A stretch of 30,170 nt of DNA from Burkholderiales bacterium (GTDB taxonomy: Bacteria; Pseudomonadota; Gammaproteobacteria; Burkholderiales; Usitatibacteraceae): NCBI GenBank assembly GCA_043788115.1, contig JAYVUH010000165.1, forward strand, positions 1 to 30,170, read 5' to 3'. Positions 8,864 through 22,929 of this stretch are shown piece after piece; the first letter of the stretch is position 1; every line of letters begins with the position of its first letter. Made by a program: the position numbers and the translations under genes. The notes under the pieces were generated by a model that was given only the letters and a program-made list of their open reading frames with translations, did not search any database and had not been told where the DNA came from.

Positions 8864-11800
8864 ATGCAATTGCTCCGGACATTGCTGGTCGTTCTGCTCC
8901 TACATGTCGGTACACCTTTTGGGCAAACGATAACCCTGTTTAGTGACGGCCTGACGCCCGGAGTTGAGTGGGCGGATATACGAGCAATAGCGAGAGGTGC
9001 AGACGGTAATCTTTGGTTTACAGAGAGTGCAGGACGAATTGGCCGAATCACGACAGCCGGAGTCATAACAGAATTCTCCGCTGGGCTATCTTTCAGGCCA
9101 GGCAGCATCGCTCTTGGTCCAGATGGCAATATGTGGTTCACCGAGCGCGCAGGCGCCAAAGTCGGCAAGATTACACCAGCTGGCGTCATTACCGAGTTTT
9201 CGCAAGGGATATCAGCAGGCGCGCGAATATTTGGTATCACTTCGGGACCTGATGGCAACCTTTGGTACTCCGCTTGCGGCACACAAAAAATCGGGCGTAT
9301 CACGACGTCTGGTGTTGTCACAGAGTTTGCAGCAGGCATCCCTGCCGGAGCGTGCCCTTCTGGCATCACTCAGGGACCAGACGGCAATATTTGGTTTGCT
9401 GATCAACAGAAACGAATTGGCCGAATTACGACTGCTGGTGTCGTCACTATGTTTACCGCCGGTCTTCCAACCGATACGAACGGAGGTCCTGTCTTCATCA
9501 CCGCCGGGCCCGATGGCAACCTGTGGTTCACCATCACTAACGGCTCCCGCGTTGGCCGGATTACTCCTGCGGGAGTCATAACCGTATTCTCGGTTCCCGG
9601 GGGAGCTGATCCAAACCCTTGGCAAATCGTAACCGGTTCGGATGGAAACCTTTGGGTCACTAATTACTATGGTAGCCAAGGGCGCCTAGTATGGAAACTA
9701 ACGACCTCGGGAGTGGCAACAGCGTTCACAGTCGCCTCTTCAGCGATTGGCGGCGGATACCCCCAGGCAATTGCGTCCGGTCCTGACGGTAGTCTATGGA
9801 TTGGGCATGACATCAACTACAACTACATAACCCGAATGACCACTGAGGGGGCTCAAACCCATTTTTCTGAGGGAATCACTAAAACGGTGCCTTTTCCGCA
9901 ACCTTATAGCATCGTCAGCGGATCTGACGGAAATCTATGGGCACCTTTGCTTGGAAGCCGCCGATTTGCCAAAATTACGATGCAAGGAAAAATTACCGAA
10001 ATATCGCCAAACCCAGACTTAAGCATAGGCGCTAGTTTAGTATTTGCGCCGGACGGTAACGGATGGTTTGGTAGTTATAACAGCGTCGCGTATGTCACCC
10101 TTGCGGGTGAGACCAAGCAGTTCGGCTTAGGCGGATGTCAGAGTGGAACACCCAACAACTATCCTTATTCAGGTCTGCCTACGCTAGGGCCAGATGGAAA
10201 CGTTTGGGTTGTGGTGGGGCAATCTACGGCTTCTGGGCAATACCAACATTGCATAGCAAAAGTTACTCTTGCGGGCGTGGCGTCAAAAGTCGTAACCCTC
10301 TCAAGCGACCTCGCACCGGCGGCGATGGCCGCTGGGCCAGACGGAAATATGTGGTTTGTAGGTGGAGGGGGTAGCAGTCCTACCAGCACACCGAGCGTCG
10401 GGCGCATCTCGCCAACTGGCGAGGTTGCGACCTTCCCTACAGGTGTCGACTCTCGTTCGTTATTCACCTCAATTGTCGCAGGCCCAGACGGCAACATGTG
10501 GTTCACCGACCGCTTGGGGCAAATCGGGCGGATTACGATGACGGGCACGGTCACCTTTTTCAATCAGAGCACTGGGAACGCCCTTTTGTATTATCAGGCC
10601 ATCACCGCCGGGCCCGATGGAAGCCTTTGGTTTACTAGGGGAGGTAATGGGGTTGTTGGCAGCGCCATTGGTCGAATTACAACGTCCGGCGTAGTGACGA
10701 TATTCGGCGAAGGTATCCTCACCAACTCTTCCCGATGGGGAATCACCGCCGGCCCTGACGCGAATATTTGGTTCACCGAATATAGCGGCAACAAGATAGG
10801 TCGACTTACCACCGGGCTGGTGCCGAACAACATTGAGTTTCCAATCATACCCACCCAAAACTTGGCAAGCGCAACCTACACGCTGTCTGCCACTTCGACG
10901 TCTGGAGGTAATGTCGCTTTCACATCGGCGACACCAAGCGTGTGCGCCGTTAACGGCCGGACAGTTGCGTTCGTGCAAGCTGGCACTTGCACCATCGCTG
11001 CGAATCAAGCCGGAGGTTCTCAATATGCTCAAGCCCCGCAGGTCCTGCGGTCATTTCAAATAACTTCGCTTTTGGTACAAACGATAGCGTTCAACCCTGT
11101 TCCAAACAGGGCGTTGGGTAGCGCGCCCCTCACGCTCTCAGCTAGTGCTAGCTCGCTCCTTCCCGTTACCTTTAGTTCGCTGACGCCATCCGTATGCACG
11201 GTGAGTGGTCTTGTCGTCACAAACGTCGCGGTAGGTACCTGCACAATTGCTGGCAACCAAGGCGGGAACGCAACATTAGGCGCAGCTCAACAAGTGACAC
11301 AGTCTTTCCAAGTTACTGCCGGCAATCCGCCATCACCAGCAGTCCGAGGTGCAATCGATCTGGATGGAAACGGTAGGAATGCGTTTTTGTTACGCAGTGC
11401 CACTGCGCGGATGTTGGTAGGTAGATTTACGAACGGCGCATTTCTGTTTTCGGCTCTTACTGATCCCGGTTCCGCTTTTCGGCTTGTGGGTGTTGGCGAT
11501 TTCGATGGCAACGGAAAATCTGACCTTGCGTTTCAGAACATGACTCAGGGCGAATTGGGCGACATTAAGATTTGGAAGGACTTTTCTCCTTCAAATGAAA
11601 TCTACTGGCGGCAGGTTAAGCAGGTCTGGGACGTGCAGGCTACTGGTGATTTAGACGGAGACGGCTTCAGCGATATGGTTTGGCGCTATGTAGTGACTTC
11701 TTCGGCGGATACTGGCGTTTCTTATGTTTGGTTCACGAACGGTTCAAGCGTAACCCAGGTACGCAAGCGTGGAGGTGCTCCACTCGACTGGCAACTGCTC

Positions 11801-12364
11801 GGTGCTGCCGATTTGAATGGTGATCGCGCAGCGGACATGGTCTACATTAATCCTGCCGGTCAGGTGCGCGTACTGATGGCGACTCCCGGCAGAACCTGTG
11901 CAAATCTAACTGCTGGAAGCATACCGGCTGGGTATTCGGCGTTGAAACTGGCGGATTTCACTGGTAGCGGTCGAGCGGAGATTCTCATTAAAAATGCCGC
12001 TGGCCAAGCACAGCTTCTCGCACTGAATGGATCTGGGCTTACTCTCCCACCGTACATGGGCGCGCCAGATGACCAAAACGCGGCTTGCACATCAACCTCG
12101 CTAGCAGTTGGTACGAGCGTCTTGGCGTTGCCAAATATAGACCCAAGCTGGCAGTACTATGTGTCCGGAGACTTTAACGGCGACGGTATTGCCGATATCG
12201 TCTGGGTGCGACCAGATGGGACGTTGACCATGTGGCAAATGAACGCCGGTCTCTTAACCGGGAATAGTGCAGCACCAACTGTGTTGAACGACGTTGGTAG
12301 TGCTCCCCAAGGCTACTCGGTGTTCAATGGTGAAAAAAGCGGCACAAAGAGACTGCGGCAGTAG
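8864..12364 (+). CDS. Secreted multidomain protein: signal peptide, 14 Vgb-like (GPDGNxWF) propeller blades, 2 Ig-like repeats, FG-GAP/VCBS-like repeats
   Basis: Hydrophobic N-terminus; 14 G[PSA]DG-type motifs counted; two ~80-aa repeats each with PSVC...GTCTI; five clear DxDGDGxxD-type motifs plus one degenerate; AAGGGG RBS. Confidence 0.85.
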   Translation: MQLLRTLLVVLLLHVGTPFGQTITLFSDGLTPGVEWADIRAIARGADGNLWFTESAGRIGRITTAGVITEFSAGLSFRPGSIALGPDGNMWFTERAGAKVGKITPAGVITEFSQGISAGARIFGITSGPDGNLWYSACGTQKIGRITTSGVVTEFAAGIPAGACPSGITQGPDGNIWFADQQKRIGRITTAGVVTMFTAGLPTDTNGGPVFITAGPDGNLWFTITNGSRVGRITPAGVITVFSVPGGADPNPWQIVTGSDGNLWVTNYYGSQGRLVWKLTTSGVATAFTVASSAIGGGYPQAIASGPDGSLWIGHDINYNYITRMTTEGAQTHFSEGITKTVPFPQPYSIVSGSDGNLWAPLLGSRRFAKITMQGKITEISPNPDLSIGASLVFAPDGNGWFGSYNSVAYVTLAGETKQFGLGGCQSGTPNNYPYSGLPTLGPDGNVWVVVGQSTASGQYQHCIAKVTLAGVASKVVTLSSDLAPAAMAAGPDGNMWFVGGGGSSPTSTPSVGRISPTGEVATFPTGVDSRSLFTSIVAGPDGNMWFTDRLGQIGRITMTGTVTFFNQSTGNALLYYQAITAGPDGSLWFTRGGNGVVGSAIGRITTSGVVTIFGEGILTNSSRWGITAGPDANIWFTEYSGNKIGRLTTGLVPNNIEFPIIPTQNLASATYTLSATSTSGGNVAFTSATPSVCAVNGRTVAFVQAGTCTIAANQAGGSQYAQAPQVLRSFQITSLLVQTIAFNPVPNRALGSAPLTLSASASSLLPVTFSSLTPSVCTVSGLVVTNVAVGTCTIAGNQGGNATLGAAQQVTQSFQVTAGNPPSPAVRGAIDLDGNGRNAFLLRSATARMLVGRFTNGAFLFSALTDPGSAFRLVGVGDFDGNGKSDLAFQNMTQGELGDIKIWKDFSPSNEIYWRQVKQVWDVQATGDLDGDGFSDMVWRYVVTSSADTGVSYVWFTNGSSVTQVRKRGGAPLDWQLLGAADLNGDRAADMVYINPAGQVRVLMATPGRTCANLTAGSIPAGYSALKLADFTGSGRAEILIKNAAGQAQLLALNGSGLTLPPYMGAPDDQNAACTSTSLAVGTSVLALPNIDPSWQYYVSGDFNGDGIADIVWVRPDGTLTMWQMNAGLLTGNSAAPTVLNDVGSAPQGYSVFNGEKSGTKRLRQ

Positions 12365-20769: not shown

Positions 20770-21132
20770 ATGAAAAAGTCTGATGTAGACAAGTTCGGCA
20801 AGCGCAGATCGAGCACAGCGGTGACGCTGGTGGTGATCGGTGCCGCGGCGATGACCACGTTGGGCGGGTGTGCCAAAGAAGATGTTCGTCGCGACGTCTA
20901 CGCTAACAAGGAAGACTGCCTTGCCGATTGGGGTAACAACCCTACCGACTGCGAGCCTGCCTACGATCATCCCGCTTCTCGCGGTGCGGGAACGGCTTAC
21001 TATGGGCGTCCGTATATCCATAACAGCGGGGCAGGTAGCGCATCGCGATCAAGCAAGTCGATCGGGTCGAGCTCAAGTGTTTCCCGGGGCGGATTTGGCT
21101 CAAGCGGCCACTCGTCTTCTAGCGGCGGATGA
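20770..21132 (+). CDS. DUF1190-like (YgiB/YjfM-like) lipoprotein with Gly/Ser-rich tail
   Basis: Basic N-region, hydrophobic stretch and lipobox LGGC; RRDVYANKEDC..DW...C; tail SRGGFGSSGHSSSSGG; located upstream of a Gsp-like ligase as in ygiBC. Confidence 0.75.
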   Translation: MKKSDVDKFGKRRSSTAVTLVVIGAAAMTTLGGCAKEDVRRDVYANKEDCLADWGNNPTDCEPAYDHPASRGAGTAYYGRPYIHNSGAGSASRSSKSIGSSSSVSRGGFGSSGHSSSSGG

Positions 21133-21641
21133 TCGTGGTCGAGCCGCTGGCGGCGCTTGAGGCGGCAGATCAGCAACAATTGGGAGTGCTGTTGCTGGAT
21201 TCAATCCAGCAGGGGGCATCGGTGGGCTGGACCAATCCCGCGTCTCTTGACAACATACAAGCGTACTGGAAGACCATCGCACAGGATCTTTTACGGGGCA
21301 GCCGCTCAGTGTTGGTCGTTCGTGAGGGCGGCGCCATCGTTGCTTCGCTCCAACTCGAATATGCTAGCAAGCCTAACAGCGTGCATCGCGCCGAGGTACA
21401 AAAAGTGTTGGTGCATTCCTCGCAGCGCCGCCGCGGGCTGGGTCGACTGTTGATGCAGCGGGCGGAGGAAATTGCGCGCAGCAGGGGCCGCAGCTTGCTG
21501 GTACTCGATACCGAATCGGCCAGCGCGGGGCAGTGGCTTTACGAATCGATGGGCTATGTGGCCGCAGGCGAAATTCCCAAATTCGCCATTGGCACCAATG
21601 GTGGCTGGACACCGACAACCTACATGTACAAGTTGCTCTGA
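21129..21641 (+). CDS. GNAT family N-acetyltransferase (Ttr-like)
   Basis: RAEVQKVLVHSSQRRRGLGRLLM (acetyl-CoA motif A), LLVLDT, LYESMGY; ATGA overlap with the lipoprotein stop. Confidence 0.88.
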   Translation: MIVVEPLAALEAADQQQLGVLLLDSIQQGASVGWTNPASLDNIQAYWKTIAQDLLRGSRSVLVVREGGAIVASLQLEYASKPNSVHRAEVQKVLVHSSQRRRGLGRLLMQRAEEIARSRGRSLLVLDTESASAGQWLYESMGYVAAGEIPKFAIGTNGGWTPTTYMYKLL

Positions 21642-21645
21642 GCAG

Positions 21646-21841
21646 ATGCAACGTGAACTCTTGATCCCCCGACCCGACTGGCCTCGAAAAATGGAGGGCA
21701 GGACGCTTTTAGTGTCGGCCGACCTGCCGGTCTTAACTTGGCTGCGCCAAGTTAGCCTTCACTGAAAGCAAAGCCCGCGACCACTTCCCATGCAACGTGA
21801 ACTCTTGATTCCCCGACCCGACTGGCCTCGAAAAATGGAGG
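21646..21841 (+). repeat. 52-bp direct repeat of the ligase gene 5' end (21646-21697 and 21790-21841) flanking a 92-nt structured insert
   Basis: 51/52 identical; the single difference (C21666/T21810) is synonymous (Ile); period 144 nt, in frame. Confidence 0.95.
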
Positions 21842-22929
21842 AGGTGGGCTTTGCTTTTCATTCCATTGATGGCATCTACTGGGATGAGCGCGCCTGCTAT
21901 CAACTGACGACGGGAGAGGTGGATATGCTCGAGTCAGTCACCAACGAGCTGCACGAGATGTGTATCGACGCCGCGGCGCGGGTGATTGAGCGCGAGATGT
22001 TTGAACAATTCGCCATCCCGCCGGAATTTGTGCCGCTGGTGGTGGCGTCTTGGAATGACGACGCGCCGACGCTGTTTGGTCGGTTTGATCTTTCGTGGGA
22101 TGGCAAAAGTCCGCCAAAGATGCTCGAGTACAACGCTGATACCCCTACCTCGCTGATCGAAGCTAGCGTCGCGCAATGGTACTGGCTGAAAGACGTCAAA
22201 CCGGATGCCGACCAATTCAACAGCCTTCATGAAAAATTGATTGCGCGCTGGCGCGAGGTGTCTTCTGAAATTGGCGCAACCACCATTCACTTTGCATGTG
22301 ACGGCACCAGCGAAGAAGACGTTGGCAATCTTGACTATATGTGCGATGTCGCAACCCAGGCCGGCCTGTCACCGCGCTTCATCGATATCGCCCATATCGG
22401 CTGGGATGCCGTTGGCAAACGATTCGTTGACGAACAAAACAACGATATCGCCGCGATGTTCAAGCTCTATCCGTGGGAGTGGATGGTGCGCGAGGCGTTC
22501 GGCCGGAATGTTCTGAGCGCAAACACGTGTTTCATCGAGCCGGCATGGAAGATGCTGCTCTCCAACAAGGCGATCCTGCCGGTCCTCTGGGAAATGTTTC
22601 CCGACCATCCCAATTTGCTGCCCGCCTATTTCACGCCGCAGAAATTCGCCAGCGACTTCGTTAAGAAACCGCTGCTGTCACGCGAGGGTGCCAATATCAA
22701 CATCCATACCGGCAGCGGTGAAGTGGCAACCAGTGGCGAGTACGGAGAGGAAGGGTTTATCTACCAAGCCTACCATCCATTGCCGAATTTTTCGGCCAAT
22801 GGTGAGGCAAACTACATGGTCGTCGGTAGCTGGATCATTGGTGATGTCGCAGCGGGCATCGGCATTCGTGAAGATGAGTCACCGATCACCAAAAATACCA
22901 GCCGTTTCCTGCCACATTACTTTGTTTGA
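21790..22929 (+). CDS. Glutathionylspermidine synthase-like ATP-grasp ligase (YgiC/YjfC type, no amidase domain)
   Basis: GRFDL, MLEYNADTPTSLIE, KLYPWEWM, EPAWKMLLSNK, KKPLLSREGANI, GSW, GIRED; 379 aa. Confidence 0.92.
   Translation: MQRELLIPRPDWPRKMEEVGFAFHSIDGIYWDERACYQLTTGEVDMLESVTNELHEMCIDAAARVIEREMFEQFAIPPEFVPLVVASWNDDAPTLFGRFDLSWDGKSPPKMLEYNADTPTSLIEASVAQWYWLKDVKPDADQFNSLHEKLIARWREVSSEIGATTIHFACDGTSEEDVGNLDYMCDVATQAGLSPRFIDIAHIGWDAVGKRFVDEQNNDIAAMFKLYPWEWMVREAFGRNVLSANTCFIEPAWKMLLSNKAILPVLWEMFPDHPNLLPAYFTPQKFASDFVKKPLLSREGANINIHTGSGEVATSGEYGEEGFIYQAYHPLPNFSANGEANYMVVGSWIIGDVAAGIGIREDESPITKNTSRFLPHYFV

Follow-up and report, generated by a model that had tools for sequence, protein, structure and literature searches.

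IS608, of the IS200/IS605 family, is moved by an HUH transposase as a single-stranded DNA circle and is inserted 3' of a tetranucleotide chosen by DNA-DNA pairing (PMC5934647). The small element described here, which lies across the start of a ygiC gene, resembles this family in its precise insertion after a T-rich tetranucleotide without target-site duplication, in both ends closing with similar tetranucleotides, in the preference for C at +1, and in ends that appear to be set by DNA-DNA pairing next to a hairpin. It differs in having one three-way-junction scaffold, where IS608 has two end hairpins, and a variable, antiparallel arm of 12-18 nt, where the IS608 guide is a fixed 4 nt. In addition, it carries a replacement gene end and no conserved right-end hairpin, no tnpA/tnpB was found with it, and its folded strand appears to be the opposite one.

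The REP, BIME and REPIN sequences associated with RAYT are likewise short, gene-less palindromic repeats that form tandem arrays (PMC8266576, PMC3116915), and they share with the element a G-N-A-G motif at the stem foot and GNA loops on one strand. However, REPs are extragenic and present in high copy, whereas the element occurs inside gene ends in 1-11 copies per genome. Its minus-strand motif, counted in the 3' internal loop of 145 copies, reads GCAG in 62, GAAG in 34, GGAG in 22 and GTAG in 20, unlike the invariant GTAG (or CGTC) of REPs; its junction is not at CT, and it has an arm and captures a gene end. No RAYT gene was found flanked by the scaffold, and the RAYT of the genome studied here is flanked by unrelated REPs. 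Two loci bring both kinds of repeat together: upstream of nuoD (L050, G000:C307 1675-2081), two half-scaffolds are parted by RAYT-type REP units, which looks like an element broken up by REP insertion, and at a dnaJ 3' end (L281:2008-2760, G056:C20) a RAYT gene with its own REPs is inserted into the element.

The BRE repeats come from the same clade, are ~90 nt long with T-run ends, occur as tandem copies and sometimes overlap gene ends (Hot et al. 2011, PMC3110155). The motifs CTTAAC and GTTAG are absent from the List S1 sequences that were compared, and the sections of that paper considered here describe neither an arm nor gene-end replacement (PMC3110155); one BRE representative gave no nhmmer match to the profile of the element family. 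BRE is, by its sequence, a different family, possibly of a similar kind. In integrative elements such as tRNA/tmRNA islands and prophages, attP restores the interrupted gene end. Here too, the insert lies between an old and a new copy of a gene end and the gene is kept whole, but the element has neither integrase nor cargo, is as a rule no longer than 150 nt, uses one scaffold over dozens of unrelated targets and has a self-complementary arm.

The MIRU of mycobacteria are small mobile repeats at start codons with a short ORF that keeps downstream coupling (PMC12548453), as the element does at ygiC; their sequence is unrelated, the relay ORF of the element is the stranded start of the host gene, and most of its copies lie at 3' ends. 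The bridge RNA of IS110 and the seekRNA of IS1111, as far as the portion of the source considered goes (PMC11208160), likewise combine a structured nucleic acid with a variable segment that matches the insertion site, while the element has no recombinase gene, a single guide segment, a DNA-type fold and gene-end capture. An R-like TAAC/GTTA stem recalls integron attC sites, but there is no L box, the junctions lie elsewhere (the attC crossover is G|TT, where | marks the junction), and integron integrases do not co-occur with the element (Fisher p 0.8). Group I and II introns differ from this 148-nt element with its RG...T ends, and Rfam returned nothing meaningful for it at E up to 10. A description of the family was not found in the open-access papers that were searched. 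The present family is a real and apparently undescribed form of small non-autonomous hairpin element; what is new is the arm test on held-out copies, the precise junctions, an insertion without duplication, a gene start that travels with the element, the bias between the strands and the distinction from BRE.

The window analysed, a stretch of 30,170 nucleotides from a Burkholderiales bacterium, contains the features compiled in Table 1. The operon order is speD-speE-DUF1190-like-GNAT-ygiC-DUF350 and is polyamine-related. The presence of the GNAT gene between the DUF1190-like gene and ygiC varies within the genus, and in G005 (L003) it is truncated upstream of the first ygiC copy. Elsewhere in the window, an ORF of 1166 aa (8864-12364) has internal repeats of ~129 nt in two blocks.

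Table 1. Features of the ygiC locus and of the element, in window positions
Feature	Position	Strand	Basis or remark
GNAT acetyltransferase upstream of ygiC	21129-21641	+	PF00583; stop 4 nt before ATG 21646
First repeat, the stranded original ygiC start	21646-21697	+	4 nt after the GNAT stop; comparison with sister G007
By-product ORF, 39 codons	21646-21765	+	Begins with 17 codons of the old ygiC start and continues through the scaffold; probably relays ribosomes
Remodelled left site	21698-21710	+	13 nt in place of 17 nt of gene copy
Whole element, 148 nt	21711-21858	.	Left junction TTTT|AG to right junction TTTT|CA; family-wide junction geometry
Conserved three-way-junction scaffold	21711-21764	- (likelier folded strand, as DNA)	Covariation, covariance model, strand bias
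Scaffold motifs	CGGCCG 21716; CTTAAC 21732; GTTAGCCT 21751	+	
Variable arm, 12 nt	21765-21776	+	Pairs with the right end of the same element
Spacer before the new start codon	21777-21789	+	Related spacer left as a scar in element-free G068
Element-borne replacement ygiC start, codons 1-23	21790-21858	+	Second 52-nt repeat plus anti-arm 21846-21857
YgiC-type single-domain glutathionylspermidine-synthase-like ligase, 379 aa	21790-22929	+	Target gene; PF03738, E 9.7e-151

A first-pass annotation of this DNA had described an insert that creates an in-frame leader ORF and an arm pairing with sequence just past the second repeat, and both hold. ATG 21646 opens a frame of 39 codons, without an NCBIfam match, that ends at TGA 21763-21765; ATG 21790 follows in the same frame after a gap of 24 nt. 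The segment 21765-21776 is the exact reverse complement (12/12) of 21846-21857. The two 52-nt repeats differ in one base (51/52 identical), and at the empty site of the sister genome G007 the same context precedes its single ATG. The reported absence of a Shine-Dalgarno sequence before ATG 21790 is real but not special, since most element-free orthologues also lack one. The further 6 bp that had been proposed to extend the helix (21783-21788 with 21840-21845) are pairable, with one G-U and a 6-nt bulge, but have a probability of ~0 in that register: in the RNA ensemble, the 12-bp helix has a probability of 0.93 and the 6-nt segment uses another register instead. In unitigs from four sediment runs of one study, two of them possibly from the source sample, the insert has about the depth of its flanks, so it is not an assembly artefact.

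Perfect 12-mer inverted repeats 40-100 nt downstream occur in this genome at 7.6e-5 per position, so that such a match is expected by chance over the 92-nt insert in roughly 0.7% of cases. More decisively, the arm match exceeds chance because 10 of the 11 ygiC copies of the genus pair 12/12, with three separate compensatory double changes; the compensatory change C21769:G21853 is private to this genome. In G012 the helix is lost (5/12) and the ygiC frame is still open.

We placed the beginning of the element at 21711 because in four other carriers (L024, L026, L030 and L032) the full gene copy is kept up to the junction and reaches the TTTT directly before the scaffold. At our locus the remodelled left site has lost its complementarity to the arm, and its 4-nt loss sets the frame of the leader. 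Removal of 21711-21858 from junction to junction leaves ygiC 4 nt short, and this copy is therefore probably fixed. G21764 faces the last T of either junction. The covariation of the scaffold comprises 8 pairs with double changes, its score was reached in 0 of 500 shuffles, and this copy, a training sequence, scores 67.6 bits with the covariance model.

That model, with 66 positions and a three-way junction showing real covariation, was used for a genus-wide search and found copies in 30 of the 63 genomes; of the seven in this genome, two lie at xerC, two at argF and one each at ygiC, ivd and mraY. BLAST and nhmmer with the insert gave no full second copy in its own genome; only the covariance model recovered the others. 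Over 240 further loci belong to the family. An exact pattern has at least 120 matches in GTDB and at least 120 in metagenomes, and the named records among the matches listed are mainly Betaproteobacteria, while a sample of 150 other genomes from across the class yielded no copy. Cultured carriers include Azonexus caeni, Novimethylophilus kurashikiensis, Methylophilus methylotrophus and Hylemonella gracilis. The phage and plasmid collections gave no real match, and viral contigs gave one probable copy besides three chance matches; the scaffold antisense to the 3' end of a prophage helicase gene on an IMG/VR contig (L123:4524-4572) is a possible vehicle for horizontal spread.

The elements occupy 5' ends, those of the sense genes ygiC, nuoD and galU and that of a formyltransferase gene, and the 3' ends of gapA, smpB, mraY, glmS, ivd, argF, dnaJ, nrdA and xerC, where most are antisense to the gene (gapA, smpB, mraY, glmS, ivd, dnaJ, nrdA); gene names come from reading the translations and from tblastn to the own genome. 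tRNA and 5S loci also carry members of the family. Tandem arrays are frequent, and the units within an array differ. At xerC the geometry is reversed and the gene is sense (G000:C255 2671-2803 = L247; L088, L095, L100, L105, L156), with the 3' end left of a minimal element and the displaced copy to its right, as if the left flank had been captured. Behind 5S rRNA genes, antisense elements stand in nested arrays with duplicated 5S ends and terminators (L036, L041, L042, L044, L045, L070, L081).

The layout of the elements is TT(T/G)T|RG, scaffold, G, arm, spacer, an optional gene-end copy, and TT(T/G)T|. The junctions are TTTT or TTGT in most copies, and the right one is followed by C in 76 of 91. 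Element lengths are mostly 72-165 nt, with a peak at 140-150 and a full range of 72-193; no distant right ends were found, the longest element having 193 nt. Right junctions cluster 85-104 nt from the scaffold, at nuoD too, although only 35 nt of gene are needed there, which suggests a length ceiling. A rule that element length is a multiple of three was considered and is not general.

The arm pairs over at least 12 nt before the right end of its own element. In a set chosen for good pairing, this holds for over 90% of copies at each of positions 1-11 and drops after ~12. We scored the pairing over the 9 free arm positions with a threshold of at least 7: among the first 166 copies, 55% of the arms reach it with their own ends, against 2.9% of swapped pairs, and in a held-out test of 109 metagenome copies the values are 56% and 0.8%. 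When elements were removed in silico and the flanks joined, 63 of 73 testable cases regained a conserved reading frame with no gap close by. A minimal element of 78 nt (L222) splits an integron integrase gene at YDI|RTVQ; the insertion made no duplication, and the arm does not match the target. The pairing with the own end, the restored frames and L222 together indicate that the arm marks the end of its own element and that insertion, at T| followed mostly by C, makes no target-site duplication. Target-site duplication as the source of the second gene copy was rejected, as that copy is foreign in several carriers.

The first-pass annotation had also considered the complementarity as a possible mechanistic footprint, the element end being complementary to its target, and had asked whether other copies share the same arm. 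They do not: the 109 held-out copies have 101 distinct arms. The pairing itself stands, far above swapped pairs, but its partner is the element's own right end, which travels with the element, rather than outside target sequence. Pairing on the target side at insertion found no support, as the left sites of the held-out copies match the arm at 4.2 of 9 positions on average and the clean insertion L222 lacks a match.

This bears on the first alternative, in which insertion is programmable: the arm would select the target by pairing 12-18 nt before the cut and be rewritten for each target, like a natural long-guide IS608 or a DNA-level bridge. The diversity of the arms and the sharp 12-nt pairing window fit this idea, as do left sites that pair 12/12 with the arm in some copies (L024, L030, L032) and junctions at nuoD, gapA and glmS that are used repeatedly across families; IS608 itself can be engineered to 12/17-nt targets by extended pairing (PMC5934647). 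Against it stand, besides the low left-site average and L222, the copy of the target that the element carries, which accounts for most of the match, and the specific erosion of the left arm window, which is bimodal and not significant over 17 targets (p 0.12). We consider target selection by the arm unlikely, at perhaps one chance in four. In displaced old gene copies, changes at conserved codons often fall just within the window that pairs with the arm (gapA, alaC-like, glmS and mraY; L067, L091, L126, L180, L434), a trend that falls short of significance over the 17 targets.

The insert precedes ygiC in eleven species of the genus and is absent from most, including the nearest sister, G007; on a tree of the YgiC protein body with 38 rows (10 carriers and 28 without the element), the trait changes at least 7 times. 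In all carriers but G012, codons 1-23 are nearer to other carriers than to element-free sisters by 0.06-0.25 (0.14-0.16 in G050, 0.23-0.25 in G009/G004 and 0.10 in this genome), the smaller of these differences falling within the spread of other windows. The other windows of ygiC average about zero or below, and the likeness to carriers fades past the junction. The inserts of G050 and G005 have a similarity score of 0.94, yet their YgiC proteins belong to separate subclades. The sequences thus point to a spare ygiC start that moves between lineages together with the element, in few cases and among carriers that are kin. Part of the patchiness is due to loss, given that the carriers are kin and that their presence pattern differs only weakly from shuffled labels (47/500); the element-free alleles L297 (G068), L299 (G058) and L311 (G049), which keep the spacer or carrier-type first codons, are probable scars of such loss.

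A second alternative, that of a REP-like hairpin repeat spreading passively, would need no element-borne gene end: the duplications would be local or due to unequal crossover, and the arms would arise by template switching. Perfect arms could indeed persist through template-switch repair of quasi-palindromes rather than through selection, tandem arrays exist, the loops are GNA like those of REPs, and the two gene-start copies at our locus are nearly identical. However, the likeness between first and second copy is only 78-83% in G050, G004, G034 and G033, where the first is nearer to element-free relatives, and in G050 and G004 the second copy groups with other carriers. Plain local duplication is disfavoured because first copies resemble element-free alleles more than their own second copies, although such cases are few and the carriers are kin. 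With junctions fixed to one motif as well, passive spreading appears improbable, more so than the guide.

The composition of the scaffold indicates which strand folds. Read on the plus strand, most hairpin loops have the form c(TNC)g and the 3x3 internal loop has the form TNC/TNC; the stem mismatches are C.T (71), A.C (24) and G.T (12). On the minus strand, the same mismatches read as G.A or G.T pairs, the internal loop is GNA/GNA (137 and 138 of 145), and c(GNA)g triloops occur in 63 of 145 and 59 of 145 hairpins, against 1 of 145 on the plus strand. c(GNA)g triloops are very stable in DNA. We infer from these counts that the folding substrate is probably single-stranded DNA of the minus strand.

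This strand bias weakens a third alternative, an RNA-mediated element with a group I-like P1 helix and a U.G wobble at the splice site, moving as circular RNA or as a reverse-transcribed unit. Its appeal lies in the T.G at the junction on the plus strand (147 of 173 copies) and in an arm that resembles an internal guide sequence. There is, however, no catalytic core and no terminal G, C.T and A.C mismatches outnumber G.T on the strand concerned, the triloops are unusual for RNA, both gene orientations are occupied, and no reverse transcriptase was found in the own genome (89% complete). An RNA intermediate is accordingly rated as quite improbable.

The leader ORF is the stranded old start read on through the scaffold, and hence a by-product. 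In the ygiC carriers its stop lies 24-34 nt upstream of the new ATG or 8 nt beyond it; 9 of the 11 have it in frame, and it varies in length, tail and stop codon. In the nuoD (11) and galU (2) rows with a correctly called start, the ORF from the old start stops between -8 and +9 nt of the new start in 13 of 13, and selection by the host for coupling where the gene matters most seems evident from the sequences of these two target genes. In a model, the helix disappears when a ribosome stands at the leader stop, and opening the start region then costs 3.0 kcal/mol in place of 12.2. A relay from GNAT through the leader to ygiC is likely. According to a review (PMC12548453), one study saw no effect on translational coupling up to +25 nt, and other evidence points to losses when the increase is below 20 nt. 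Stop-codon read-through or bypassing is unnecessary as an explanation, and neither the TGA nor the frame is conserved. The first-pass suggestion of translational coupling is thus plausible, as a consequence of insertion. The weakest alternative, a dedicated leader that regulates the ligase as a translational attenuator or as a riboswitch, for example for polyamines, could appeal to alternative pairings of the arm, a leader that is in frame in most ygiC carriers, the polyamine-related operon and a helix conserved by compensatory changes, but is very improbable and, as to attenuation, unsupported, given dozens of unrelated target genes with this scaffold, most of them carrying it antisense at the 3' end, where there is no leader, 28 of 38 orthologues without the element, a second half, stop codon and frame that vary, a fold bias that favours the strand not transcribed, the mRNA here being the plus strand, and no Rfam match. 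DGR-type template and variable repeats were rejected, as the differences between the copies are not adenine-specific.

We therefore return to a non-autonomous mobile DNA element with an arm-defined end, a replacement gene end and strand-wise movement as DNA, the reading that we favour with a probability of roughly 0.6. Movement would take place as single-stranded DNA, probably of the minus strand: an enzyme supplied in trans would bind the scaffold, cut both junctions and release a small circle, a step to which we give slightly less than an even chance. The enzyme would most likely be an HUH/Y1-type transposase, as in the peel-and-paste of IS608, and otherwise another single-stranded DNA recombinase. 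The arm would tell it where the element ends, and an element whose arm pairs with a site 30-100 nt further on would capture a gene end. Homing of the circle to the same spot in related genomes, helped by 35-70 nt of carried homology and partial arm pairing and leaving the gene intact, seems to us evenly balanced. At the 5' ends of sense genes, the stranded start would become a relay ORF kept by host selection, which we hold for the more probable course; here, the terminating ribosome would melt the helix 24 nt upstream of the new start, which lacks a Shine-Dalgarno sequence. A stronger form, natural gene-less programmable homing in which a single-stranded DNA arm of 12-18 nt both sets the boundary and directs the circle into a matching site, delivering a gene end with a trans enzyme, is doubtful.

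The search for that enzyme covered ~290 loci, with no enzyme gene beside the elements; clustering of the neighbours gave target genes only, and a motif screen yielded xerC and intI alone, as targets. Y1 transposases occur in 52 of 63 genomes and are too common to discriminate; no scaffold lies beside 31 Y1 loci, and one weak scaffold match has a further Y1 gene nearby, which proved to be a RAYT that had gone into an element. The own genome gave no IS110 match, and no excised or circular form was seen among the contigs. A full-length integron integrase (TIGR02249) is present in the own genome (G000:C43 4601-5545, L453). The T-rich cut motif with C at +1 resembles the active top strand of IS608, and the analogy is imperfect because the fold bias points to the opposite strand.

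At this locus, the element explains the leader as a by-product and warns annotators of doubled gene starts. Because cultured carriers exist, the family is directly testable. Should the arm truly fix the boundary or the target, the enzyme would represent, in nature, a scar-free DNA integrase with a long guide, of a kind so far only engineered, from IS608. Across the family, tiny elements inside essential genes (nuoD, gapA, mraY, glmS and smpB) appear to swap the first or last 10-30 codons between species, which would be a route for the horizontal exchange of protein termini.
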